Shown here piece by piece: positions 10,315-52,043 of a stretch of 64,000 nucleotides of DNA (positions are counted from its first letter, which is position 1; each line of letters starts with the position of its first letter). The notes below the pieces were generated by a model that did no database searches, was not told the DNA's origin, and worked only from the letters and a program-made list of their open reading frames with translations. The translations under genes and the position numbers were made by a program. Source of the stretch: an uncultured Candidatus Saccharibacteria bacterium (GTDB taxonomy: Bacteria > Patescibacteriota > Minisyncoccia > Phycocordibacterales > Zambryskibacteraceae); assembly GCA_964355645.1 (NCBI GenBank), contig CAYHDI010000002.1, positions 11,452-75,451 of the forward strand. Direction: 5' to 3'.

Positions 10315-11108
10315 TGTTCTACACAATGTTCAGAAAACTTTTCTCAACTTTATTCTTTGTACTACTTCTCGCGGGAGCGGGGGTTTATTTTTATAATCAG
10401 CAACCTTGCGTTCAACCGATTGGATTTAGGATTGGGACCCTCGACAGTCGGTTTGGATTGAGTCAGGTGGAGTTTAAGCAGATTGCTATTCAAGCCGAAG
10501 AAATTTGGAGCAAAGATTTGGGTAAACCATTATTCAAATACGATCCAAATGGGTCGCTGGCGGTGAATTTGATTTATGATTCAAGGCAGGCAACCGCGGA
10601 CAAGAATGCGAATATCATCTCAGACATAAATCAAACGACCGAATCCGCTGATGCGGTTCGTACCCAATTTCTCGCCCTTGAATTAAATTACAAAGAAAGT
10701 CTTGCAGATTACAACGCGCTTCTTTCAGAGCGAAAGGATTTTCAGGCGATTGAAGAGAAAAGATTGGAAGTCAACGCTTTGGCCGAGCAAATCAATGCGT
10801 TGGTAAAAAAATATAATTATTTGGTTAGTGCGGTGAACACAAATATAAATACGGTGAACCAGTCGGCGGGCAAAGAATTCGAAGAAGGGGAGTATGTTTA
10901 TGATTCGAACGGCAAGAGAATAAATATTTATGAATTTAAAACTCGATCGGAACTTATTCGAGTGCTAGCTCACGAATTTGGCCATGCGCTCAATATGAAT
11001 CACAACAATAATCCAAAATCGATTATGTATTATTTGAATCAGAGCTCAAATGAAGTCCCAACCGCAGAAGATACGAACGCCTTGAAAACAATTTGTAGAG
11101 TGAAATAA
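10314..11108 (+). CDS. membrane-anchored zinc metalloprotease (HExxHxxxxxH, matrixin-like)
   Basis: It has an N-terminal TM segment and the C-terminal motif LAHEFGHALNMNHNNN. Confidence 0.55.
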   Translation: MFYTMFRKLFSTLFFVLLLAGAGVYFYNQQPCVQPIGFRIGTLDSRFGLSQVEFKQIAIQAEEIWSKDLGKPLFKYDPNGSLAVNLIYDSRQATADKNANIISDINQTTESADAVRTQFLALELNYKESLADYNALLSERKDFQAIEEKRLEVNALAEQINALVKKYNYLVSAVNTNINTVNQSAGKEFEEGEYVYDSNGKRINIYEFKTRSELIRVLAHEFGHALNMNHNNNPKSIMYYLNQSSNEVPTAEDTNALKTICRVK

Positions 11109-11222
11109 AACCCTTGCTCCATCGGCATACAAGTGGACAAAGGCAGTGTTTTGTGCTAAGGTGCCCTCAGATCATGATGTACGCGGATTCCCCGCACAAA
11201 CCTGCTCCCGAGGTACCAACTC

Positions 11223-11801
11223 ATGCGCTCCTTTACCCTCGTTGTACTCCTGGCTATCCTGCTGGCCCCGTTGGGCCTGATTCAGGCCCAGAACACGTGC
11301 GGTATCTGTCCGCCCAAGGACACCACTGCCCTAGCCCTCAACGCCTTCAAGGCGAAGATGGACAAGACGGACAGGAGTCAGAATGCTCGCATCGCGAGCC
11401 TCCAGGTCTCCCGTGTCCAGATGCAGAAGAGCATCGAAGTCCTGTCCGGCAAGGTCCTCGACCTCAACGCGAGGCCTACGACCGATACGTCGGTCATGAA
11501 CCAGCTTACTTGGAATTCGGCCGAACTCGCTCGGCAGAAGGTCGAACTCTCCAAGGTCGAGAACGAGATCTCTGGGCTCGGGCGTCAGCTAGCCGAAGCA
11601 AGGGCAAAGGCTCTTGAACAGGCGAACAAGGATACCAAGAAGAAGACAAGCGGTCTGTCGACGGGCGACAAGTGGCTAATCGGCGGCTCAGCCGTCGTCG
11701 TGACTGGAGGACTGGTGTATCTCGCTGTCCAGAAATTGGGCAGGTCGGAGACTCACACCAGCTCCTCCAGCTCCTCCTGCTCCGGCAGCAATTGCCGATA
11801 G
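11223..11801 (+). CDS. secreted coiled-coil protein with C-terminal TM and Ser-rich tail, encoded in a roughly 60% GC block (likely foreign)
   Basis: It has a signal peptide (MRSFTLVVLLAILLAPLGLIQAQ). GC content jumps sharply relative to both flanks. A GC-rich terminator hairpin follows directly. Confidence 0.35.
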   Translation: MRSFTLVVLLAILLAPLGLIQAQNTCGICPPKDTTALALNAFKAKMDKTDRSQNARIASLQVSRVQMQKSIEVLSGKVLDLNARPTTDTSVMNQLTWNSAELARQKVELSKVENEISGLGRQLAEARAKALEQANKDTKKKTSGLSTGDKWLIGGSAVVVTGGLVYLAVQKLGRSETHTSSSSSSCSGSNCR

Positions 11802-11806
11802 CGCAC

Positions 11807-11840
11807 CCGGGCCTCGCAGAACATGCGAGGCCCTTTTGTT
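11807..11840 (+). terminator. rho-independent terminator
   Basis: The hairpin gcctcgcagaacatgcgaggc is followed by ccttttgttttt. Confidence 0.55.
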
Positions 11841-11867
11841 TTTATTATTTATAGTGAGCCTGTCGAA

Positions 11868-12827
11868 CTATTTTCCAGCGTGCAAGTACAAATAAATATC
11901 TTCGAGAGCCTTCACCGCGTCGCCGGCAGCGATGTTGTTTTGATGATAAAGTCCATCTGTGCAATCTCCAGCAGCCCAGAGACCTTCGACTTCAGATACT
12001 TGAGTTTTCGGATTAACCGGGATTTGTTTGTATTCGTTTAATTTAATTAAATTTTCTACAAATGAAGTGGATGGGATAAGTCCAATTTCAACAAATATGC
12101 CGGTGACGGGCAATTCAACTTTTTCTTTTTTTTCATTCTCATAAACAATAGATGAGACAAAGTTTGTTCCTTTAATTTCTACAGGCGTAGCATTCTTTGT
12201 AAGCTTCATATTCGGATGAGAGAGGACTTTTTCTACTGTGGATGGATCGGCCTTAACTACCTCACTTCTGTTGAGTAGGGTTACAGATCTTGCATAAGCC
12301 AAGAGTTGGGCGGCAGATTCGAATCCTGCATTTCCGCTTCCTATGACCACGACATCTTGTCCGGCGAAGAGAGGGCCGTCGCATGAGGCACAATATGTGA
12401 TACCTTTGTTTTCAAATTCTTTGGCTCCAGGGATGTCTAGTTTTCTACGAGTGCTCCCAGTGGCCACAAACACAGTTTTGGTTTCGTATCTTCCTTCTTT
12501 GGTAGTGACAGAGAAATTGTCACTGTTCTTTTCGATTTTCTGTACCCATTCGTTTAAATGAATATCTACCACATCGCTCGCCACGGCTCGAAGATGATTT
12601 TCTAAAGCTTTGCCCAGATCTGCTCCAGAAATATTCAAAGTGCCAACCCAGTTTTCTACCCCCATGGATTCTACTGATTGCCCCCCAATAGATTCTGCGA
12701 TGAATAGGGTTTTCAATCTTTTGCGCGCAGCATATATACCAGCAGAAACCCCGGCTGGGCCCCCTCCGATGATAGTCAAGTCGTATTGCATAAAGCACAG
12801 AATACCAGAAAATTTTTTTATATACAA
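11868..12827 (-). CDS. trxB: thioredoxin-disulfide reductase-like FAD/NAD(P) oxidoreductase
   Basis: It has the GGGPAG dinucleotide motif, a redox CxxC (CASCDG), and a second Rossmann motif GSGNAG. The likely start is the internal Met at 12788. Confidence 0.7.
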   Translation of the reverse strand: MYIKKFSGILCFMQYDLTIIGGGPAGVSAGIYAARKRLKTLFIAESIGGQSVESMGVENWVGTLNISGADLGKALENHLRAVASDVVDIHLNEWVQKIEKNSDNFSVTTKEGRYETKTVFVATGSTRRKLDIPGAKEFENKGITYCASCDGPLFAGQDVVVIGSGNAGFESAAQLLAYARSVTLLNRSEVVKADPSTVEKVLSHPNMKLTKNATPVEIKGTNFVSSIVYENEKKEKVELPVTGIFVEIGLIPSTSFVENLIKLNEYKQIPVNPKTQVSEVEGLWAAGDCTDGLYHQNNIAAGDAVKALEDIYLYLHAGK

Positions 12828-29876: not shown

Positions 29877-30224
29877 ATGAAAAGAATTATTCCGTTTCTT
29901 GTTCTGACGCCATTCCTTGCTTCGGCTCAGACGCTTGGTACTATTCCAACTTTGCTCAAGTCTGTAGGAAGCCTTATCAACACAGCCCTACCTATCGTGG
30001 TTGGACTGGCTCTTCTTGGGTTCTTCTGGGGATTGGCCATGTTCATTTTTGGCGCAAATGATGAAGAAAAACGCAAAGAGGGTCGTTCAATTATGATTTG
30101 GGGCGTCGTCGCTCTATTCGTGATGGTGGCTGTCTGGGGATTGGTAAACTTCATTGGAAGTGCTGTGGGTGTTGTTCCAGGAGCTGCTGGTATTCCGACA
30201 ATTCCGACCGTTCCAGCTAGATAA
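29877..30224 (+). CDS. TrbC/VirB2-like small two-TM protein, paralog 5 (with signal peptide)
   Basis: It has the FFWGLAMFIFGANDEEKRKEGRSIMIWGVVALFVMVAVWGL core. It shares a 48-bp DNA segment with paralog 4 with one mismatch. Confidence 0.4.
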   Translation: MKRIIPFLVLTPFLASAQTLGTIPTLLKSVGSLINTALPIVVGLALLGFFWGLAMFIFGANDEEKRKEGRSIMIWGVVALFVMVAVWGLVNFIGSAVGVVPGAAGIPTIPTVPAR

Positions 30225-30233
30225 TATTTCTGC

Positions 30234-30509
30234 TTGATGTCGATTGCCACGTTTCTAAACAAGATTAATGCAGCGATTCTTAATCCGCTCATAGGTTTGG
30301 TTTTCGCTGTGGCCACTATTGTGTTCATCTACGGTCTTGTTGAGTTCATTCGTTCAGAAACAGCGGACAAGGCCCGCGAAGCGGGCAAGAAGAAAATTCT
30401 CTATGGTCTCCTCGGAATGTTCATCATGTTCAGCGCTTACGGATTGATTCATCTGATTCTCGGAACATTCGGCATCCCGAATCCTCCGGGTGCTTACATT
30501 AGTTTCTAA
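30234..30509 (+). CDS. TrbC/VirB2-like small two-TM protein, paralog 6
   Basis: It has the same architecture with a diverged loop, ETADKAREAGKKKILYG. Confidence 0.35.
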   Translation: MMSIATFLNKINAAILNPLIGLVFAVATIVFIYGLVEFIRSETADKAREAGKKKILYGLLGMFIMFSAYGLIHLILGTFGIPNPPGAYISF

Positions 30510-30526
30510 GAAAATACAGAAATGAA

Positions 30527-30570
30527 TAAGCCCCGTCCCGCAAAGTCGCATGTGCGACCGCGGGGCGGGG
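30527..30570. terminator. GC-rich bidirectional terminator at the boundary of a GC-rich island
   Basis: The stems are agccccgtcccgc...gcggggcggggct. Confidence 0.5.
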
Positions 30571-30582
30571 CTTTGTGTTCCC

Positions 30583-31230
30583 CTACTTGTAGAATCGTAC
30601 GCCGATTCGGAGACTCGAATCACCGAGCGATTTGAACGCGATGGTTCTCACCATTCCGAATTGCACAGTTTCCATCTCCGGACGAATGGTGAATTTTCCA
30701 GCTTGAGTTGCCACGACGTACGGGACGTCGAGCTCCTCGGCATTCACTTCCATCGTGTAGCCTTTCCGCACTTCTCGGGGAAGCGTCCATGACTTGCCGA
30801 ATGTATTCGGCTGAGCTGTGAACCAAAATGTGGTATCGCTTGGGAACTGTGGATGCGTCTTCAAGTATTCGGCCTGAGCCTGAGCTTTGGCCATTTCCGC
30901 CTTCTGGTACTTCCCGTTGACCCACGGCCACACGATGAAGATGACGACGAGAGCGAAAATGGTCCAGCCCGCGAACTTCTGGAACCACTTGTGCGTGATA
31001 ACCGTGCCAGCTTTTGTTCGGCGATTCTCGTCCCAGGCAATCCAGGAGATGAGAGCGAGTAAAGCAAGCACTACCGCGGTGATCCACGTCCAGTGCCAGA
31101 CTCTTGACCAATCCACCGAACCGATGAAAAGGCTAAGAATCATAACCGCAACGATGAGCCCGATGACTGCACCGCCGGCTTGGAGCCTCTGTTTTCTGTT
31201 CATATCCCCTCCACGGGGAAATAGGTTCAA
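30583..31230 (-). CDS. membrane protein with C-terminal soluble domain (possible NfeD-like partner of the SPFH protein); GC-rich
   Basis: It has four predicted TM helices and a C-terminal domain of roughly 90 aa. It shares an operon and GC content with the SPFH gene. Confidence 0.35.
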   Translation of the reverse strand: MNLFPRGGDMNRKQRLQAGGAVIGLIVAVMILSLFIGSVDWSRVWHWTWITAVVLALLALISWIAWDENRRTKAGTVITHKWFQKFAGWTIFALVVIFIVWPWVNGKYQKAEMAKAQAQAEYLKTHPQFPSDTTFWFTAQPNTFGKSWTLPREVRKGYTMEVNAEELDVPYVVATQAGKFTIRPEMETVQFGMVRTIAFKSLGDSSLRIGVRFYK

Positions 31231-31314
31231 CTTCGTCTTTGCCCATTATACGCCCAAATTATATTTTGTCAAGTATGAAAAAGACTGGGAGATTTTTTGC
31301 CCAGTCTATGCACA

Positions 31315-32445
31315 TTACTTCGACCCAACGAGTTGGGCTGTCTTGCCTCCAACCACGAGAGTAGTAAGAGTTTTGTTCTCTCCGATTGCCTCGGCGAAAC
31401 GAATCCCCGCAGCGTTCGGAATTGCTCCGAGCGGAATGAGTACTCGAGTGACGCGATCAGCATCAGCGGTGTTCACAACCTTCTGTGCCTCGGCTTTTCC
31501 CTCACCGGCGAGGATGACAAGTTTCTTATCCTTCTCGGCTCGAGCGATGGCTGCCTTGTTCTCGCGCTCCGTGGTTTCTTGGAGTTCGAGAAGCGTACGT
31601 GTCTTCTCGTCCACATCGATGCCAAGAAGATTCGTAGTTCTGACCGTGATTCCAATCTTTTCTTCTATTTCTCCCTGCTTATCCATCACAGCCTTGACGA
31701 GGTCGTGTTTGTTGGAGACATCACCTTGGATGAAGTACTCAGGTTCTTGATTTCCCGTCGTGTTGTTTACGGCTTCCATCACCATCGCTGTGAGCACGGC
31801 GTTGGGGTCGGCCATTCCCAAAACGGCATGAACCGGATATTTCATCGCGTACAACAAGTTGAATTGCAAATCGAGCTCGTATGAGCCCATGGTTTCCGCA
31901 CCACGCACATCCACAGCTTGCTCGCGCGAGTAGTAGATGAACTTGGTGGAGAAATCCTTGCCTACGATTGAGTACACGTCGCGGTCTCCATCCTTGCCCT
32001 TCTTGAATCTGATTTCATGAACCTGATTTAGACGGAGAGAACGACCCCAGCCAATCCAGTGGATGCCGAAGAGGTAGTGAAGGAGTCCATATTCCTTTTC
32101 ACCATCCTCGAAGCACCACTTGAATGGATCTGGGTCATCGTCATTCAAGCGTTGGCCTGGAACGCCGTGGATAACTTTGTCGAGCTCACCATCAATGAGA
32201 TTGGATGCATCGGTTGAATCACTTGACGACCCCCAAGTGACAAGTGCGAAAGTATTCGCCGGAATGAAGCACCACCAGATCTCGTTGTAAGCGAGAATCC
32301 AGATGGTTCCAAGCACTAGTGTTACTAGTGCAAGGACGATGAGAAGGGAAATGAAAAGCGCTATCATTCTGTGCTCCCTGTGGCCATAGCCACGGAGTAA
32401 TGTGAAATGTGCATGAATCTTGCCTGTCGCGATTTTATCATACAA
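31315..32445 (-). CDS. SPFH/Band-7 (stomatin/prohibitin/flotillin) domain protein; GC-rich
   Basis: It has an N-terminal TM helix, a band-7 core and a C-terminal ...ILAGEGKAEAQK... Ala/Glu-rich coiled coil, typical of flotillin-like proteins. Confidence 0.65.
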   Translation of the reverse strand: MYDKIATGKIHAHFTLLRGYGHREHRMIALFISLLIVLALVTLVLGTIWILAYNEIWWCFIPANTFALVTWGSSSDSTDASNLIDGELDKVIHGVPGQRLNDDDPDPFKWCFEDGEKEYGLLHYLFGIHWIGWGRSLRLNQVHEIRFKKGKDGDRDVYSIVGKDFSTKFIYYSREQAVDVRGAETMGSYELDLQFNLLYAMKYPVHAVLGMADPNAVLTAMVMEAVNNTTGNQEPEYFIQGDVSNKHDLVKAVMDKQGEIEEKIGITVRTTNLLGIDVDEKTRTLLELQETTERENKAAIARAEKDKKLVILAGEGKAEAQKVVNTADADRVTRVLIPLGAIPNAAGIRFAEAIGENKTLTTLVVGGKTAQLVGSK

Positions 32446-32501
32446 AATCTACGAAGTCAAATAAAAAATACCAAACAAAAGTCTGGAATTTTTTGCATTG
32501 T

Positions 32502-32581
32502 GCCGAGGAGAGGACTTGAACCCCCACCCCTTGCGGGACCAGTTCCTAAAACTGGCGTGTCTACCATTTCACCACCTCGGC
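32502..32581 (-). tRNA. tRNA-Leu (anticodon TAG)
   Basis: The reverse complement is gccgaggtggtgaaatggtagacacgccagtttTAGgaactgg... with a long variable arm; the T-arm is ggttcaagtcc. Confidence 0.75.
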
Positions 32582-32585
32582 AGGG

Positions 32586-32658
32586 TGCGCCCAGTAGGAG
32601 TCGAACCTACGACCATCTCCTTAAGAGGGAGCTGCTCTACCAACTGAGCTATGGGCGC
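32586..32658 (-). tRNA. tRNA-Lys (anticodon CTT)
   Basis: The reverse complement is gcgcccatagctcagttggtagagcagctccctCTTaaggag...ggttcgactcc. Confidence 0.7.
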
Positions 32659-32729
32659 AAAACTTTTGTAACTTACAAACAATACCTAAAAAACAATTCT
32701 TTTTCAATTATGATAATGTATTAAAGAGT

Positions 32730-32801
32730 GGCCTAGTCGCCAAGTGGTAAGGCAAAGCTCTGCAAAAGCTTTATACGGCGGTTCGATTCCGCCCTAGGCC
32801 T
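32730..32801 (+). tRNA. tRNA-Cys (anticodon GCA)
   Basis: ggcctagtcgccaagtggtaaggcaaagctctGCAaaagcttt...ggttcgattccgccctaggcct. Confidence 0.75.
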
Positions 32802-32837
32802 CCTGTTCAAGAAAGTTTTGTTGTGTAGAATTAGATA

Positions 32838-33551
32838 ATGATTGATCGTGAAAAAATTAAACCTCAACATCTCTGGTATTTTATAGGATTGATTGTAACC
32901 GATGGAAATCTAAGTAAAAGTGGACGACATATTATTCTGACTTCTAAAGATAGAGAGCATCTATATTTAATTAAGAAGATTCTAGGGCTTACAAATGTTA
33001 TTGGCAGAAAGACTAGGGCTAGTTCAGAAGATAGATTATATTCTACCCTTCAGTTTGGAGATATTCGTTTTTATAAATACTTACAGAGCATAGGCATAAC
33101 CCAGAAAAAATCTCTTACTCTTGGAAAGATTGCAATAGACAAAAAATATTTCTGCGATTTTTTGAGAGGGGTAATTGATGGTGATGGCTATATTACTAGA
33201 TGGAAACATAAAAATAATGGGTTAAATCAGTGGGCTTTGGGCATTGTCTCTGCGGCTCCCGTATTTATTTGTTGGTTAAAAAATGAAATAGAGATACAGT
33301 TTAAAGTAAGGGGAAGGTTACACATTTATCTACCAAAAGGAAAGAAAAACCCTATAAACACATTAAAATTTGGGAAACTTGCTGGTAAGGTGATTATAAA
33401 AAATGTTTATTATAAGAATTCTTTTTGTCTGGAAAGAAAAAGACTCAAATGTGAAGAGTGTTTACTAGATAGGAATCGAATGGTAAATTATGGGGGTGTC
33501 ATTCGCCCGGGTGCTGAAATCGGTAGACAGCCTCGACTTAAAATCGAGTGA
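32838..33551 (+). CDS. LAGLIDADG homing endonuclease (double-motif)
   Basis: Two LAGLIDADG motifs are present: YFIGLIVTDGNL and DFLRGVIDGDGYI. The gene is AT-rich. Its last roughly 45 nt read into the 5' half of tRNA-Leu(TAA). Confidence 0.75.
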   Translation: MIDREKIKPQHLWYFIGLIVTDGNLSKSGRHIILTSKDREHLYLIKKILGLTNVIGRKTRASSEDRLYSTLQFGDIRFYKYLQSIGITQKKSLTLGKIAIDKKYFCDFLRGVIDGDGYITRWKHKNNGLNQWALGIVSAAPVFICWLKNEIEIQFKVRGRLHIYLPKGKKNPINTLKFGKLAGKVIIKNVYYKNSFCLERKRLKCEECLLDRNRMVNYGGVIRPGAEIGRQPRLKIE

Positions 33552-33588
33552 GGGAAACCTTGTGTGGGTTCGAGTCCCACCCCGGGCA
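33505..33588 (+). tRNA. tRNA-Leu (anticodon TAA)
   Basis: gcccgggtgctgaaatcggtagacagcctcgactTAAaatcgag... has a long variable arm; the T-arm is gggttcgagtccc. Confidence 0.75.
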
Positions 33589-33592
33589 CATT

Positions 33593-33663
33593 GCGGGTAT
33601 GGTTTAGTGGTAGAATGCGACCTTCCCAAGGTTGAGACCCGAGTTCGATTCTCGGTACCCGCA
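33593..33663 (+). tRNA. tRNA-Gly (anticodon CCC)
   Basis: gcgggtatggtttagtggtagaatgcgaccttCCCaaggttg...gagttcgattctcggtacccgca. Confidence 0.7.
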
Positions 33664-33717
33664 CACTTCTGCAAGCTCAGTGTAAACTATTATTTTATTT
33701 CATTCGTAATCTCGTCC

Positions 33718-33801: not shown

Positions 33802-34716
33802 TTATTCAGTTTTTAGATTTTCTGTAAGACCAGAATTTGCAATAATTATTTGAATAATCTTAAGTAAATTCTCAAGTATAGGTACAATTCTTCTGTTTTC
33901 TTCCGCGATATCTTCCTCAGAAGGCAGTTTTCTAGTTCTCAAATATTTGTCACGGTTAGTGGAAAGATACTCAAAACAATAATTAGCTTCGTCAATTATT
34001 TTATTAAATTCCTTTTGTTGTTGTGGGGTTAAAGATGACTCATCTCGTATGTCGAACGAAGGGTCACGCACCATTCGTTCCAAAAGATTTAGGCTAAGAC
34101 TTTTGATATATTGAGCATATTCGATTGCTTTTGTGAGAGTTTGTTGAGAGACAGCAATTCTTTTTGCAAGGATTGTTATCCTATCTTCCTCACTTGCTTT
34201 AGGAAGTTCACTTCCAAGAAATTGTCCGGTGTAGCACCCGTATGAGAGCTTGTTTGTTATATCTCCCCCTATCTCGATTATTTGCTCCAAGAACGTCATA
34301 GGGTTTTGCTCTTTTGTGGTTTCATCTTTGATACGACTCATCTGATACGAACGGAGAATTTTAATATCTGTTCCCACTATCATCTTAAGTGTTACGTCTA
34401 CGTTAGCTCCATGCCCAAGGCGATCTGTAATAGTTCGGACCAAACCTTCAGTATCTATAGGATTGGTTACGACAGGATGTTTATCAGCGCCCTTTATCTG
34501 ATCTAATAATCTATCAACATACCCCTCTTGGATGGCCTTAAGCAACATTGGATTAATTGTTGCCTGTTCCATCTGTTCATGACGATGAGCAGCAGTTTCC
34601 AGAGTAAATTTGGGATCACGAAAATCTTCTTCTCTTAATGCCAGATACCGTGCTAATATCCTTGGCTCAATTTCAGGTACGGGTTCTTCAAGTTTTTCTT
34701 CATTCATATAACGCAT
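33802..34716 (-). CDS. hypothetical protein (304 aa), cargo of the direct-repeat-flanked insertion; no recognisable domain
   Basis: The complete ORF is AT-rich and co-oriented with infB-rbfA. Confidence 0.4.
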   Translation of the reverse strand: MRYMNEEKLEEPVPEIEPRILARYLALREEDFRDPKFTLETAAHRHEQMEQATINPMLLKAIQEGYVDRLLDQIKGADKHPVVTNPIDTEGLVRTITDRLGHGANVDVTLKMIVGTDIKILRSYQMSRIKDETTKEQNPMTFLEQIIEIGGDITNKLSYGCYTGQFLGSELPKASEEDRITILAKRIAVSQQTLTKAIEYAQYIKSLSLNLLERMVRDPSFDIRDESSLTPQQQKEFNKIIDEANYCFEYLSTNRDKYLRTRKLPSEEDIAEENRRIVPILENLLKIIQIIIANSGLTENLKTE

Positions 34717-34784
34717 TATAACATTATGATAAATAGTACACTACACGTAGAAATTTCTAGCAAGAAATTATCTGTGACCACAAA

Positions 34785-35105
34785 TCAAACCGAAAGTTTA
34801 TCTAATCTCTGACGGTTGCGTTCACCATAATCAATTTTCCAACGGAGATGGGGGATAATACCGATTTTGGATTTGTCGCGGACGAAATGCATAAACTCGC
34901 TTCCTTTTCTTTCTAAAAATTTCAACGCGGTGTCTTCCTGACTGTCGGGTAGGGTAGTGAAGTATAGGTCGGCCACTTTCCCAGAAGGATTAAGTTCTAC
35001 TCGAGTGATGGTGATGAGGGATGCGGGAGTAGATTCTCGGAGGACGAAGTCTGCAGCGAGTTGACGAATGATTTCAGCTGTTTTGTCTTTCTTGATTTGT
35101 TTCAT
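34785..35105 (-). CDS. rbfA: ribosome-binding factor A
   Basis: Its 106 aa read ...ITITRVELNPSGKVADLYFTTL... It lies downstream of infB. The 3' end contains direct-repeat copy 2. Confidence 0.75.
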   Translation of the reverse strand: MKQIKKDKTAEIIRQLAADFVLRESTPASLITITRVELNPSGKVADLYFTTLPDSQEDTALKFLERKGSEFMHFVRDKSKIGIIPHLRWKIDYGERNRQRLDKLSV

Positions 35106-42038: not shown

Positions 42039-42112
42039 GGGCGATTAGTATAGTGGTAGTACAAGGCACTCCAAACGCCTTAGTGAGGGTTCGATTCCTT
42101 CATCGCCCGCCA
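42039..42112 (+). tRNA. tRNA-Trp (anticodon CCA), CCA encoded
   Basis: gggcgattagtatagtggtagtacaaggcactCCAaacgcct...gagggttcgattccttcatcgcccgcca. This is the classic rpmG-tRNA-Trp synteny. Confidence 0.65.
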
Positions 42113-42996
42113 AGTTTGGTTTGTGAATATTTTTCTATCTTTTTATATTCATTCGGAGCAAACCATTTAATCTTTTTGTTGCGTTTAAACCATGTCATCT
42201 GTCGTTTGGAATAATCCTTAATCGCAGAATAAAGTTGTTCCACGAATTCTTGTTTAGTGATTTTCTTTTGCAGTAGTCGAGCGAGATAACGATATTCAAG
42301 TCCGAGTGCTTCCATGCGTTTAAAACTCAAACCCTGCTTGTGCAAACGTTTGGCTTCACGAATCATTCCATCCAAACGCTTCAAAATTCTTTTGTAAATT
42401 CTTTTTTCTAAATCCCGCTTATTTGGTCTGATACCAATGAAAATGTATTCGTATTCTGCTTTCGACTTTATGACTTTAGGGACTTGGCCAAGGGTTTCCA
42501 CTATCTCCAACGCTCTAATAATCCTCACCTTATTTCTCGAATCAATCTCTTTAGCCCTTCTTGGATCTTTTTTCAAAAGCATGGTAAAGAGTTTTTCCTT
42601 GCTTAACTTATTCAACTTTCTCCTTAACCACTTATTGGGTGGCACCTCAGGCAAATTTATTTTTCCAATTAAAGTATCAATATAAAATCCAGTACCCCCA
42701 ACAATGATAGGGAGTTTCTTATTGTATACGATATATGATATATATTCTTCTGCGAGTTTTTTATAATCAGAGACAGAAAAATACTTTTTTGGATTAACCA
42801 CATCGAGCATGTAATGGGGGACGCCACGCATTTCTTTTTTAGTAATTTTCCCCGTGCCAATGTTTAATCCACGATAAACTTGTCTCGAATCAGCGGAGAT
42901 AATTTCTCCGTTGAATTTCTGTGCGAGCCGAATAGCCAAGTCGCTTTTCCCCGAAGCTGTGGGTCCGAGAATAACTAAAACCTTTTGCTTTTTCAT
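42100..42996 (-). CDS. miaA: tRNA dimethylallyltransferase
   Basis: It has the P-loop LVILGPTASGKSDLAI and ...ISADSRQVYRGLNIGTGK. Its last four codons overlap the tRNA-Trp 3' end on the opposite strand. Confidence 0.85.
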   Translation of the reverse strand: MKKQKVLVILGPTASGKSDLAIRLAQKFNGEIISADSRQVYRGLNIGTGKITKKEMRGVPHYMLDVVNPKKYFSVSDYKKLAEEYISYIVYNKKLPIIVGGTGFYIDTLIGKINLPEVPPNKWLRRKLNKLSKEKLFTMLLKKDPRRAKEIDSRNKVRIIRALEIVETLGQVPKVIKSKAEYEYIFIGIRPNKRDLEKRIYKRILKRLDGMIREAKRLHKQGLSFKRMEALGLEYRYLARLLQKKITKQEFVEQLYSAIKDYSKRQMTWFKRNKKIKWFAPNEYKKIEKYSQTKLGGR

Positions 42997-43569
42997 TTCT
43001 TTTCTAATCCAATTTCTTTTATAAAACTCAATGCGTTTTTATGAATACGAAATGTAAATTTCAATCTCTGTTTGTCCAGATTTAATTTTTGTTCTGAAAA
43101 TTTATAATTTAAATTTTTAAGCATTGTTTCTACACTATTTGCCAGACTTGGAATTTGAGTTACAAAATTCGCGGTTAGATACCCTCTATCCTTATATAGA
43201 ACCATCTGTCTCAAAAAGCCCGCATAGACAATGTTTACTTAGTTTTTTATTTATTAAAATCCATTTTGGCACTCGTACTGATTGTTTTAATTTTGGGCCA
43301 CCTTTTGCTTTCCATCCCAGTACTTTTTCCCAGTCGTTTGAATAGCAATAAATATCCATGGCCGTATCTTGGCGATTAATTCTGCCCACTTTGTTGTTTG
43401 GAGCAACTATATGTAATGCGCTCTCTATTTTTCTGATTAGATGTGGATATTTTGTGTCACAAGTTATACGTAATCTAACCGCTCTACCGTTGGGATTGCT
43501 CAGATTTCCGTCTCCAAGTGCTACACCAATAATGTAAGCGAGCTTGGGTTTATTGGAAGTATTTAGCAT
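42993..43569 (-). pseudogene. LAGLIDADG homing endonuclease, frameshifted into two ORFs (43192-43569 and 42993-43214)
   Basis: The N-terminal ORF has YIIGVALGDGNL ... GLFETDGSI, then a stop. The +1 frame continues with a C-terminal part homologous to the intact LAGLIDADG protein at 32838. The gene starts 2 nt after the tRNA-Leu(CAA) 3' end. Confidence 0.6.
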
Positions 43570-50037: not shown

Positions 50038-51087
50038 ATGAATTTTTGGAAAAAGCTCAAGAAACCATTTTTCTGCCTTGCACCTATGTCGGACGTGACC
50101 GACGTGGCTTTTCGATTTATGTTGGCCAAATACAGCAAGAACAGAGAAAACAAAGACCAAGTTGTTTTTTGGACAGAGTTTGTGTCTGCTGATGGCCTGT
50201 CGAACAAGCTGGCCAAAAAGAAATTAGCTCATATGTTGAAATTTTCTGAACGCGAGAGACCGATTGTGGCTCAAGTTTTCGGCGCTAACCCAGAGAATAT
50301 GAAGAAAGCTTGCCAATATATCGCGAGCCTTGGCTTTGATGGAATAGACATAAACATGGGTTGCCCGGACAAATCGGTCGTTAGTCAAGGGGCCGGAGCG
50401 GGATTAATTAAAACTCCCGAGCTCGCGAGGAAAATTATACAGTCGGCTCATGCAGGGATAGAATCTGCCGGTTTGCATATTCCTGTGTCGGTCAAAACAC
50501 GAATTGGTTTCAACAAAGAAGAAATAGATCAGTGGATTGGGGAATTATTAAAGGAGGATATTTCGGCTCTGACGATTCACTTACGAACGGCCAAAGAATT
50601 ATCTCTCGTTCCGGCGAATTGGGATTATATGAAAAAAATCAAGGAACTAATTACTAAAAGTGGCAAGGAGGTCTTGCTCATCGGCAACGGAGATATTAAG
50701 GATATGAAGGATGCGAAAAGCAAAGCCCAAGAATACAGTTGCGATGGAGTGATGATAGGTCGTGGAGTTTTTGGTAAGCCGTGGTTCTTCGCGGATCTTC
50801 ATTCACCTCACCCCATCTGCTCGCCCAGCAGTCGCCCCTCTCCTTGTCAAGGAGAGGGGAAGGGGGTGAGGTGTATTGAGGAGCAACTCAATATTCTTGT
50901 TGAACATACACAACTTTTTGAGAAGGAACTTTCCATATCAAAACACAAGAGTTTCGCCGTGATGAAAAAGCATTTCAAGGCTTATGTGAACGGATTCAAC
51001 GGGGCAGGGAAACTGCGCACAAAGCTTATGGAGACAAACAACTCACAGGAGGTGGAGAAAATAGTGAAGGATTTCCTAATCAAATAA
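50038..51087 (+). CDS. dus: tRNA-dihydrouridine synthase with an in-frame 27-aa insertion encoded by a palindromic element
   Basis: The N-terminus reads FCLAPMSDVTDVAFRFM...VFGANPENM.., a Dus TIM barrel. The inserted peptide HSPHPICSPSSRPSPCQGEGKGVRCIE is encoded exactly by repeat copy D. Confidence 0.8.
   Translation: MNFWKKLKKPFFCLAPMSDVTDVAFRFMLAKYSKNRENKDQVVFWTEFVSADGLSNKLAKKKLAHMLKFSERERPIVAQVFGANPENMKKACQYIASLGFDGIDINMGCPDKSVVSQGAGAGLIKTPELARKIIQSAHAGIESAGLHIPVSVKTRIGFNKEEIDQWIGELLKEDISALTIHLRTAKELSLVPANWDYMKKIKELITKSGKEVLLIGNGDIKDMKDAKSKAQEYSCDGVMIGRGVFGKPWFFADLHSPHPICSPSSRPSPCQGEGKGVRCIEEQLNILVEHTQLFEKELSISKHKSFAVMKKHFKAYVNGFNGAGKLRTKLMETNNSQEVEKIVKDFLIK
50802..50876. repeat. GC-rich palindromic element, complete copy D, inside the dus ORF
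   Basis: The sequence is ttcacctcacccc-atctgctcgcccagcagtcg-cccctctccttgtcaaggagagggg-aa-gggggtgaggtgtat. Confidence 0.7.
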
Positions 51088-51182
51088 GGCCGTTAAAATT
51101 GGTTGACATTCATTGTCTTTTATGCTAGGAATAGGACAGACTAACCGCAGTTCCTCGTCTCGGCCCGGGAGGGCCTTCCATC

Positions 51183-52043
51183 ATGCGTTTGAACAAGTTG
51201 TTCCTCGTGTTGTCCGTTTTGACTGCATCAGCCTGTGGCGACAAGATTTATGTCACCGCTACCGCCACTGCCGTGGCGGGCGTGGATACCACGCATCACG
51301 CACCACCGATTGACACGACGAAGAAGGACACGACCACGTCCCCGTCTACCACAACCGTTGCGGTGACTCCGAAGACGCTCGATTTGTTCATCGGGCAGTT
51401 TGGACAACTCACGGCGACTGTCACGGTCTCAAGTGGGACGGCCCCGACGCCGACATGGTCAAAGACAAATTCCTGCATCAGCCTGTCTACGGCCATTGGC
51501 ACCATTACTTCGGTGTCAGCAAATGCTGTGTGCAACACATACGTTGTCGCTTCGGCGAACGGCATTCGTGACTCAGCTCTCGTCAACGTGACGAGCGGAG
51601 CATCGAGTTGCACATGGGCGAACATAGGCGGTTCAGCCGTATACAACGCCTACATTGTGGGTGTGCCCTTCAATGCCTTTGGTGGTTGCGTCTTCCATGG
51701 CGTGGCCCAGCAACCGTATTGGTATTCGAAGGATCCTTCACGGTTCACGGTGTTGGGTGCTCCGTTCGTCTGCATGATTTCGGGCGTCGGATACCCCTGT
51801 GGAACATCGGCGACAATCAAGCCGATTTTCGTGGGGACGGCTGATGTCTGTGTACAGGCAGCTGTCCAAGATCCGAACATGATCTTCTGTCGGACTCTGA
51901 CCTCTGTCGCAGGACTTTCTGCAAGTATGGTCCAAGGCGACATTGCTGAAGGTTACAGTATGGTTTTGCCGACCGCACCTCCGAAGGGAGCCAAGGTCGA
52001 CCGAATCATCCCCTGGGCAGAATGGGTGGCTACACATCGTTAG
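51183..52043 (+). CDS. secreted/lipoprotein-like protein with bacterial Ig-like (Big_2-like) domain; encoded in a roughly 58% GC block
   Basis: The signal peptide MRLNKLFLVLSVLTASAC is lipobox-like and followed by a Thr-rich linker. The strong GC deviation suggests foreign origin. Confidence 0.4.
   Translation: MRLNKLFLVLSVLTASACGDKIYVTATATAVAGVDTTHHAPPIDTTKKDTTTSPSTTTVAVTPKTLDLFIGQFGQLTATVTVSSGTAPTPTWSKTNSCISLSTAIGTITSVSANAVCNTYVVASANGIRDSALVNVTSGASSCTWANIGGSAVYNAYIVGVPFNAFGGCVFHGVAQQPYWYSKDPSRFTVLGAPFVCMISGVGYPCGTSATIKPIFVGTADVCVQAAVQDPNMIFCRTLTSVAGLSASMVQGDIAEGYSMVLPTAPPKGAKVDRIIPWAEWVATHR

Follow-up and report, generated by a model that had tools for sequence, protein, structure and literature searches.

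Homing endonucleases owe their persistence to targets among the most conserved sequences of genomes, chiefly those of rRNA and essential proteins, which they address from within introns or inteins. Here we describe two LAGLIDADG genes of the homing-endonuclease type (HEGs), denoted as HEG1 and HEG2, which lie directly against tRNA-Leu genes in a stretch of 64,000 nt from contig CAYHDI010000002.1 of an uncultured bacterium deposited as Candidatus Saccharibacteria. This whole stretch is referred to as the window, and positions are counted from its first nucleotide. The LAGLIDADG fold and its chemistry are already known, and so are free-standing homing endonucleases. In T4-type phages, free-standing endonucleases move by intronless homing (PMC3984707). 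SegB, a GIY-YIG enzyme encoded within the T4 tRNA gene cluster, is inherited together with its flanking DNA (PMC2330249), and mobE/I-TevIII presents a collaborative-type geometry with a free-standing phage endonuclease (PMC2790892). Collaborative homing has been described for F-CphI, whose gene adjoins a psbA intron (PMC3984707). Within bacteria of the candidate phyla radiation (CPR), LAGLIDADG genes are found in group I introns of rRNA genes, tRNA not being mentioned (PMC11270868), and a survey of tRNA introns in Patescibacteria reported no free-standing genes (PMC13011429).

HEG1 and HEG2 resemble the LAGLIDADG monomers of archaeal rRNA introns and inteins (I-Tsp061I, I-DmoI and PI-SceI) in their fold, in their size of ~190-235 aa and in having two acidic-ended LAGLIDADG helices, but they are located outside introns and inteins, in spacers of bacterial tRNA operons, and share 13-19% identity with the solved enzymes. 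As with SegB and mobE, the endonuclease gene is placed between other genes, in the case of SegB within a tRNA cluster, and intronless homing is the mechanism that we propose for the HEGs. In contrast with these phage enzymes of the GIY-YIG or HNH type, HEG1 and HEG2 are LAGLIDADG proteins encoded in chromosomes of Patescibacteria and Omnitrophota, their families were not found in IMG/VR, and their slot is fixed within a few nt of one tRNA species over hundreds of lineages. The LAGLIDADG genes of CPR rRNA introns share the host group, the superfamily and the use of conserved RNA genes as targets, whereas they are intron-borne and the HEGs described here are free-standing beside tRNA-Leu.

The literature that we searched for LAGLIDADG genes together with tRNA-Leu, Patescibacteria/CPR or Omnitrophota contained studies of rRNA and tRNA introns only, in a coverage that was incomplete and leaves an earlier description possible. 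As such, LAGLIDADG families addressed to tRNA borders across hundreds of bacterial lineages are apparently undescribed. In our reading, to which we assign a probability of about 0.6, HEG1 and HEG2 represent two distinct families of free-standing, two-domain, homing-type LAGLIDADG genes that would target the borders of tRNA-Leu genes and be coupled to tRNA operons. The observation behind this reading is solid and general, and the mechanism is plausible but unproven. Two LAGLIDADG families with a comparably fixed address and free of introns would widen the known niches of homing elements.

Two gene families in fixed slots at tRNA-Leu genes

HEG1 (32838-33551, forward strand) is an intact gene encoding a two-domain LAGLIDADG protein of 237 aa, and it is located between tRNA-Cys(GCA) (32730-32803, forward; 64.2 bits in Rfam) and tRNA-Leu(UAA) (33505-33589, forward), both of which were called by ARAGORN as well as Rfam. 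A first-pass annotation, made from the sequence alone, had described this arrangement as an intact double-motif gene overlapping the tRNA, and ARAGORN, Rfam and Pfam agree on it. In Pfam, the protein scored 32.9 bits for LAGLIDADG_3 (PF14528), where the cutoff is 22.5 (E 7.8e-8), and its two motifs are GLIVTDGNL and GVIDGDGYI. The overlap amounts to 47 nt, in that positions 33505-33551 are the last of HEG1 and the first of the tRNA-Leu(UAA) gene. The folded core of the protein comprises residues 1 to ~215, and residues 223-237 read through into the tRNA gene. An exact-sequence look-up of the HEG1 protein found none on record.

The HEG1 family was sampled as 80 loci from species-representative genomes, which were scanned for tRNAs. 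In 72 of these loci, from Patescibacteria, Omnitrophota and a few others, a tRNA-Leu gene adjoins the HEG1 relative downstream. Of these, 68 have it directly downstream and in the same orientation, with the anticodon UAA in 61, UAG in six and CAA in one. In the loci L053, L055 and L066, the tRNA-Leu(UAA) was missed by ARAGORN because its anticodon loop is interrupted by a group I intron (Rfam 65-77 bits; L053:1105-1376, L055:4681-4917 and L066:4689-4955), which is positioned inside the tRNA and downstream of the ORF (open reading frame), not around it. A further locus, L069, carries a frameshifted HEG1 pseudogene with the tRNA retained. Three of the 80 loci are at contig ends, and only five, which are distant members of the family, have no tRNA. 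The distance from the end of the HEG1 core to position +1 of the tRNA has a median of 2 nt (interquartile range 1-15 nt). Upstream, tRNA-Cys(GCA) is the usual partner and was present on the same strand in 53/80 loci; across the family, tRNA-Leu is constant and the remaining neighbours are variable.

A length of exactly 237 aa is shared by many HEG1 homologues, whose C-terminal ...PGAxxGxQPRLKIE translates the 5′ half of a tRNA-Leu gene. In one locus (L249:9419-10246), the base next to the CCA of tRNA-Cys begins the ATG of the homologue, and the ORF runs into tRNA-Leu(UAA), filling the gap between the two tRNAs exactly. The slot of the HEG1 family is the spacer 5′ of tRNA-Leu, mostly at the tRNA-Cys/tRNA-Leu(UAA) junction and in some loci at a UAG or CAA isoacceptor. 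This slot is filled in Patescibacteria, in Omnitrophota and in metagenome-assembled genomes (MAGs) labelled Deltaproteobacteria, Pseudomonadota and Armatimonadota. The order of tRNA-Cys before tRNA-Leu(UAA) is itself old and widespread; the annotation of E. coli has it in glyW-cysT-leuZ, with a spacer of 12 nt.

The equivalent slot 5′ of tRNA-Leu(UAG) is filled by relatives in both Patescibacteria and Omnitrophota. In L060 and L071, a HEG1 relative is directly 5′ of tRNA-Leu(UAG), with a tRNA-Lys gene 149-576 nt upstream that is on the same strand in L060 and on the opposite strand in L071. In the window, tRNA-Lys(CUU) and tRNA-Leu(UAG) form a pair with 1 nt between the two genes (32500-32659, reverse strand; ARAGORN), and this pair is an empty slot of the type occupied elsewhere by UAG-linked HEG1 relatives.

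Some loci show individual features. Between tRNA-Cys and the HEG1 homologue, L014 (3688-4000) and L020 (3642-4000) contain an extra ~310-360 nt, which look like a short ORF on the reverse strand whose sequence is repetitive and coiled-coil-like. A distant LAGLIDADG relative (L080:3375-4792) is placed between a transfer-messenger RNA gene and tRNA-Trp, and on a viral contig (L167:3001-3725) a relative is immediately upstream of tRNA-Leu(UAA).

HEG2 (42993-43569, reverse strand) is a frameshifted two-domain LAGLIDADG gene, and its upstream partner is tRNA-Leu(CAA) (43571/2-43654, reverse; ARAGORN and Rfam). The first-pass annotation had placed a second, frameshifted gene just after this tRNA, and the distance from the tRNA end to the ATG of HEG2 (43569) is indeed 1-2 nt. 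The gene consists of the pieces 43569-43192 (125 aa) and 43214-42993, with the C-terminal frame at ~43193-42993, and the stop codon of the second frame overlaps the start of miaA (ATGA). When rejoined, HEG2 encodes 192 aa with the motifs GVALGDGNL and GLFETDGSI, and intact homologues of 189-193 aa cover 100% of it at 52-72% identity. The broken fragments are below the cutoff of PF14528 (15.7 bits), and most intact homologues carry PF14528 as a precomputed annotation.

A TTTTT homopolymer at the junction had raised the suspicion that the frameshift might be an assembly error. Codon comparison with the intact homologues in L084-L088 revealed an inactivating 2-nt (TA) deletion instead, which turns ATATATAA into ATATAA (43193-43198, reverse) after the DGS of motif 2. 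Moreover, the frameshifted sequence recurs in three assemblies from other samples (L081, L082 and L083) with 0 mismatches over 682 nt, so that the frameshift belongs to the population and is no one-off assembly error. The frameshift is thus real, whereas the homopolymer as its cause was ruled out by the codon comparison and the three independent assemblies. In this organism, HEG2 is a decaying copy and HEG1 is intact.

The HEG2 family was sampled as 80 metagenome loci, which make 81 together with the window. In 76 of the 81, the gene immediately upstream, in the same orientation, is tRNA-Leu(CAA). The start codon is 0-22 nt past the tRNA, the typical junction being ...GGCAC followed by ATG, and in one locus the A of the encoded CCA doubles as the A of the ATG. 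The slot of the HEG2 family is immediately 3′ of tRNA-Leu(CAA), and in many related loci miaA comes after HEG2.

As a negative control, we used distant LAGLIDADG_3 genes of phages, which are HEG1 relatives in IMG/VR, at 80 loci. A tRNA was present within 3 kb in 3/80 of these loci, and an arrangement with tRNA-Leu like that of the HEGs in 1/80. Considering that the corresponding numbers are 72/80 for HEG1 and 76/81 for HEG2, the adjacency to tRNA-Leu is not a matter of chance. The first-pass annotation had suggested a homing site in or next to tRNA-Leu genes and had proposed looking at the tRNA-Leu neighbours in relatives. That comparison bears out a non-random, site-specific link, but not one shared site, because HEG1 and HEG2 are separate families with opposite geometry. 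The outcome that would have spoken against the link, other copies free of a tRNA-Leu neighbour, did not come about. The two proteins are 31% identical across 121 aa.

HEG1 and HEG2 are the sole LAGLIDADG genes in the window, and both are AT-rich as had been noted earlier, with a GC content of 0.324 and 0.338, respectively, against 0.423 for the window. Their description as genes outside introns likewise stands. The window contains 12 contiguous tRNA genes, on which ARAGORN and Rfam are concordant, and the four tRNAs at the HEG loci are full-length; in the Rfam scan of the window, tRNAs were the sole matches and there was no Intron_gpI match. Both ORFs start and stop in intergenic or tRNA sequence. 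An intron-encoded HEG, with its ORF within a group I intron, was rejected on this basis and on that of L053, L055 and L066, where the intron follows the ORF. A phage origin was also considered and rejected: the viral collection IMG/VR contained no HEG2 relatives, and the HEG1 family itself was absent from it, with only generic LAGLIDADG_3 relatives at 22-37% identity.

Predicted enzymes and their probable expression

The AlphaFold models of HEG1 and of the reconstructed HEG2 have pLDDT (predicted local distance difference test) values of 87 and 94, respectively, while residues 216-237 of HEG1 are below 50 and predicted to be disordered. Both models present the two-domain LAGLIDADG architecture, in which the order alpha-beta-beta-alpha-beta-beta-alpha occurs twice, and the top Foldseek matches of both are all LAGLIDADG enzymes with a probability of 1.00 and E values from 6e-11 to 8e-9. 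The best match of HEG1 was I-Tsp061I (E 6e-11), and the matches of HEG2 include the endonuclease domain of PI-SceI and I-DmoI. A profile search of the PDB with HEG1 also led to I-Tsp061I (2dch, E 6.7e-9). In the case of HEG2, the sequence-only profile search of the PDB gave matches to BamA, which were judged spurious, so the fold comparison was used instead.

In HEG1, D22 and the residues of D114-G-D116-G are invariant in 30 homologues, and in HEG2, D20 and D122 are invariant in 28 sequences. We take D22/D116 of HEG1 and D20/D122 of HEG2 to correspond to D21/E117 of I-DmoI. As judged from the models and alignments, both proteins are predicted two-domain LAGLIDADG endonucleases that keep the catalytic Asp residues. 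The pairwise ratio of nonsynonymous to synonymous substitution rates (dN/dS) was 0.05-0.14 in both families, pairs with unsaturated dS included, and the proteins are therefore maintained by selection.

The label 'WhiA' on homologues is an automatic name given by the Joint Genome Institute (JGI). WhiA has a C-terminal helix-turn-helix and ~300 aa, and it has lost the catalytic acidic residues. Since HEG1 and HEG2 have no helix-turn-helix, comprise 237 and 192 aa without an extra domain and keep the acidic residues, an identity as WhiA was rejected; the NCBIfam WhiA match reached 11.3 bits (E 0.16) against a cutoff of 44.1.

The overlap of ORF and tRNA, to which the first-pass annotation had drawn attention, is not conserved, as the proteins of Omnitrophota stop 3-9 nt before the tRNA. 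What is conserved is the flush abutment. Because the overlapping part of HEG1 is disordered and variable in length, and because the Omnitrophota proteins end short of the tRNA, we regard the overlap as incidental and the abutment as not.

A Shine-Dalgarno sequence is rare among the window genes and missing from most long ORFs, whereas a −10-like hexamer (TACAAT, CATAAT, TATAAT or GATAAT) precedes the ATG of many by 6-10 nt, for example at the starts 43710 (parB), 34716 (a 304-aa ORF, orf304), 47781 and 5842. Based on these two features, leaderless mRNAs are probably frequent in the organism, and leaderless translation is the apparent norm in its genome. The spacer between tRNA-Cys and the HEG1 ATG (32804-32837, forward; 34 nt) has no Shine-Dalgarno sequence, but this was not used as special evidence because most window genes have none. 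It contains a −10-like TAGAAT at 32826-32831, 6 nt ahead of the ATG, in the layout that recurs at other window genes. Scans for promoters and terminators around HEG1 and HEG2 returned nothing above shuffle expectation, with none between the tRNAs and the ORFs, and a consensus scan found no full promoter at the HEG1 spacer despite the TAGAAT. Since these scans were null, the following model of expression is built on geometry.

HEG1 and HEG2 are probably expressed from tRNA operons. In the case of HEG2, the gap between the tRNA and the ATG is too short to hold a separate promoter, and 3′ processing of tRNA-Leu(CAA) would release a nearly leaderless mRNA that starts a few nt from the AUG. The gene directly downstream, miaA (42100-42996, reverse), was identified as an ORF, with the IPT/IPPT Pfam domains seen on the identical gene in L081, and it possibly shares the transcript of HEG2. 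In the case of HEG1, the TAGAAT may give the gene its own start. The HEG1 transcript would have to extend into tRNA-Leu(UAA), where the RNase P cut at +1 would remove the stop codon, and this loss could act as a brake on a potentially toxic enzyme.

An ORF or RNA bounded directly by tRNAs is likewise found in mitochondrial tRNA punctuation and in the E. coli 3′ external transcribed spacer (3′ETS) of leuZ, an RNA released from a tRNA-operon spacer, and in the HEG loci, too, tRNA processing would define the ends. The ORF of L249, which extends exactly from the CCA of tRNA-Cys to position +1 of tRNA-Leu, resembles a tRNA-punctuated mitochondrial gene. To our knowledge, a protein-coding gene punctuated by tRNAs is not a described bacterial arrangement. 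If expression of this kind is true, it would be a bacterial counterpart to mitochondrial tRNA punctuation. The HEG loci would allow one to test, in bacteria that apparently favour leaderless mRNAs, whether the production of a protein is tied to tRNA processing.

Proposed homing and competing readings

That HEG1 and HEG2 actually home, by cleaving empty sites, is what we infer from the sequence comparisons. In the proposed mechanism, the enzyme would cut unoccupied alleles at or beside the tRNA-Leu border. A recognition of ~20 bp across a tRNA junction would meet a sequence that is nearly unchanged between phyla, and repair from the occupied allele would copy the gene in, which amounts to intronless homing. 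The conserved tRNA genes on the flanks would provide a conserved half-target as well as homology for repair, and an occupied allele would be protected, we propose, by the insertion itself, which splits the two half-sites.

Slots of both states are present among the relatives. L139 is empty, with the order rbfA-tRNA-Cys-42 nt-tRNA-Leu(UAA)-Lys-Leu(UAG), whereas L249 and L250 are filled, with rbfA followed by tRNA-Cys, whose CCA adjoins the ATG of HEG1, and then by tRNA-Leu(UAA). In L018, parB-tRNA-Leu(CAA) is empty of HEG2. The pseudogenes (HEG2 of the window and L069), the AT-richness of both genes and the filling of one slot in several phyla are further signs of a selfish element. With regard to transfer, UAG-linked HEG1 relatives of two phyla share 45.7% identity with each other, compared with 41.6% and 42.2% to the UAA-linked members of their own phylum. 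For this comparison we relied on mean identities of groups, because the neighbour-joining support for target-tRNA clades was weak. HEG2 and its host are discordant in some pairs: L089 and L129 have ParB at 82% and HEG2 at 52%, and L141 and L121 have ParB at 41% and HEG2 at 71%.

Several points weigh against homing at tRNA-Leu borders as the explanation. The comparison of filled and empty slots spans distant relatives, whose RbfA proteins are 43% identical, and a search among close strains yielded no presence/absence polymorphism, the exact matches of RbfA and L33 being on short contigs of the same or a near-identical population that end before the loci. The neighbour-joining bootstrap for target-tRNA clades was as low as 19-32%, and taxonomic labels of MAGs are unreliable. 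In the case of HEG2, the half-target beyond the tRNA would not be conserved. The block topA-parB-tRNA-Leu(CAA)-HEG2(-miaA) is kept down to ~40% identity of ParB. At close range the identity of HEG2 tracks that of ParB (87/87, 81/76 and 78/70), and at depth HEG2 plateaus at 50-57%, above the conservation of ParB and TopA; the dominant pattern is therefore long vertical residence under strong constraint. A gene passed on vertically over such depth, in a block that keeps its order, may equally well have a domesticated role. Purifying selection is strong and almost every copy sampled is intact, which would be expected of a host function as much as of recurrent homing.

It may thus be that HEG1 and HEG2 are domesticated LAGLIDADG proteins, descended from homing endonucleases, which serve the host at tRNA-Leu loci, for example by regulating the operon through DNA binding or by helping through RNA binding, and are held there by co-expression with the tRNA. 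WhiA and the LAGLIDADG maturases are known precedents of such domestication, and WhiA and the bI3 maturase are among the structural matches. The low dN/dS of 0.05-0.14, the intactness of almost all sampled copies, the absence of both families from the viral collection, and the stronger conservation of HEG2 than of ParB and TopA between distant lineages within a deep synteny all speak in its favour. Nevertheless, we consider a host role unlikely: both catalytic Asp residues are invariant, in contrast with WhiA, which lost them, there is no helix-turn-helix, and the score for NCBIfam WhiA falls far short of its cutoff. The gene is also dispensable, HEG2 being frameshifted in the window and absent in L018 and HEG1 absent in L139, and the same slot is occupied in a patchy manner across phyla, with some discordant pairs of HEG and host.

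The group I introns in L053, L055 and L066, which split the tRNA-Leu(UAA) beside a HEG1 relative, match the geometry of F-CphI and point to collaborative homing, in which the enzyme would cut intron-less tRNA-Leu(UAA) at the intron site of the anticodon loop, ~35 nt from the gene, and an ORF-less intron would protect the carrier. Intron-less carriers such as the window would then be derived states. However, the intron is present in only 3/80 loci, which are distant relatives, F-CphI is a nuclease of another family, and both the window's tRNA-Leu(UAA) and 61 other HEG1-linked ones are contiguous and would therefore be exposed to their own enzyme. As HEG2 and the UAG- and CAA-linked relatives are also left unexplained, we regard collaborative homing as improbable. 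We judge it no less doubtful that the genes are passive relics, in which one ancient insertion per tRNA-Leu gene, now inactive, was inherited in compact genomes and its adjacency is meaningless. The compact genomes, the conserved local gene order and the way in which HEG2 identity follows ParB among close relatives would be expected of relics, but a dN/dS of ~0.1 together with invariant catalytic residues would not. The abutment to tRNA-Leu moreover persists amid changing neighbours and across phyla with larger genomes, and the equivalent slot is filled at other tRNA-Leu isoacceptors.

Returning to homing at tRNA-Leu borders, a wider and more tentative proposal, which we doubt more than we believe, is that the two families belong to an unrecognised class of bacterial selfish elements. 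Such elements would use tRNA-Leu ends as homing address and tRNA genes as homology arms, move across phyla, and be expressed as tRNA-punctuated messages that are leaderless and in some cases non-stop. If homing is true, the families would supply natural meganucleases aimed at tRNA-gene junctions and a marker of DNA exchange among uncultured ultra-small bacteria. For annotation, many entries of these families are named 'hypothetical' or 'WhiA', and ORFs that enter tRNA genes may be mis-trimmed.

Surroundings of the two genes in the window

The homologues nearest to the window genes carry the labels Zambryskibacteria, Parcubacteria or Patescibacteria, and samples from the Hainich aquifer yield contigs identical to the window sequence. 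The window thus appears to belong to a small genome of a groundwater Patescibacteria (CPR) member. On the HEG1 side, tRNA-Leu(UAA) is followed by tRNA-Gly(CCC) (33593-33664, forward; ARAGORN and Rfam) as the next gene of the tRNA cluster. Beside this cluster, orf304 (33802-34716, reverse) matched only itself among 5.8 billion proteins and is an orphan. Compared with window positions 34716-34785, the contigs L245 and L246, which end short of HEG1, have an identical RbfA and a next gene that differs in spacing and length, which points to differences between strains next to the HEG1 locus. The GC content is 0.50-0.54 at 30001-32000, 11001-12000 and 51001-52000, against a window mean of 0.42, and these stretches are possibly of foreign origin. 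The SPFH/Band-7 gene at 31315-32445 has a GC content of 0.504.

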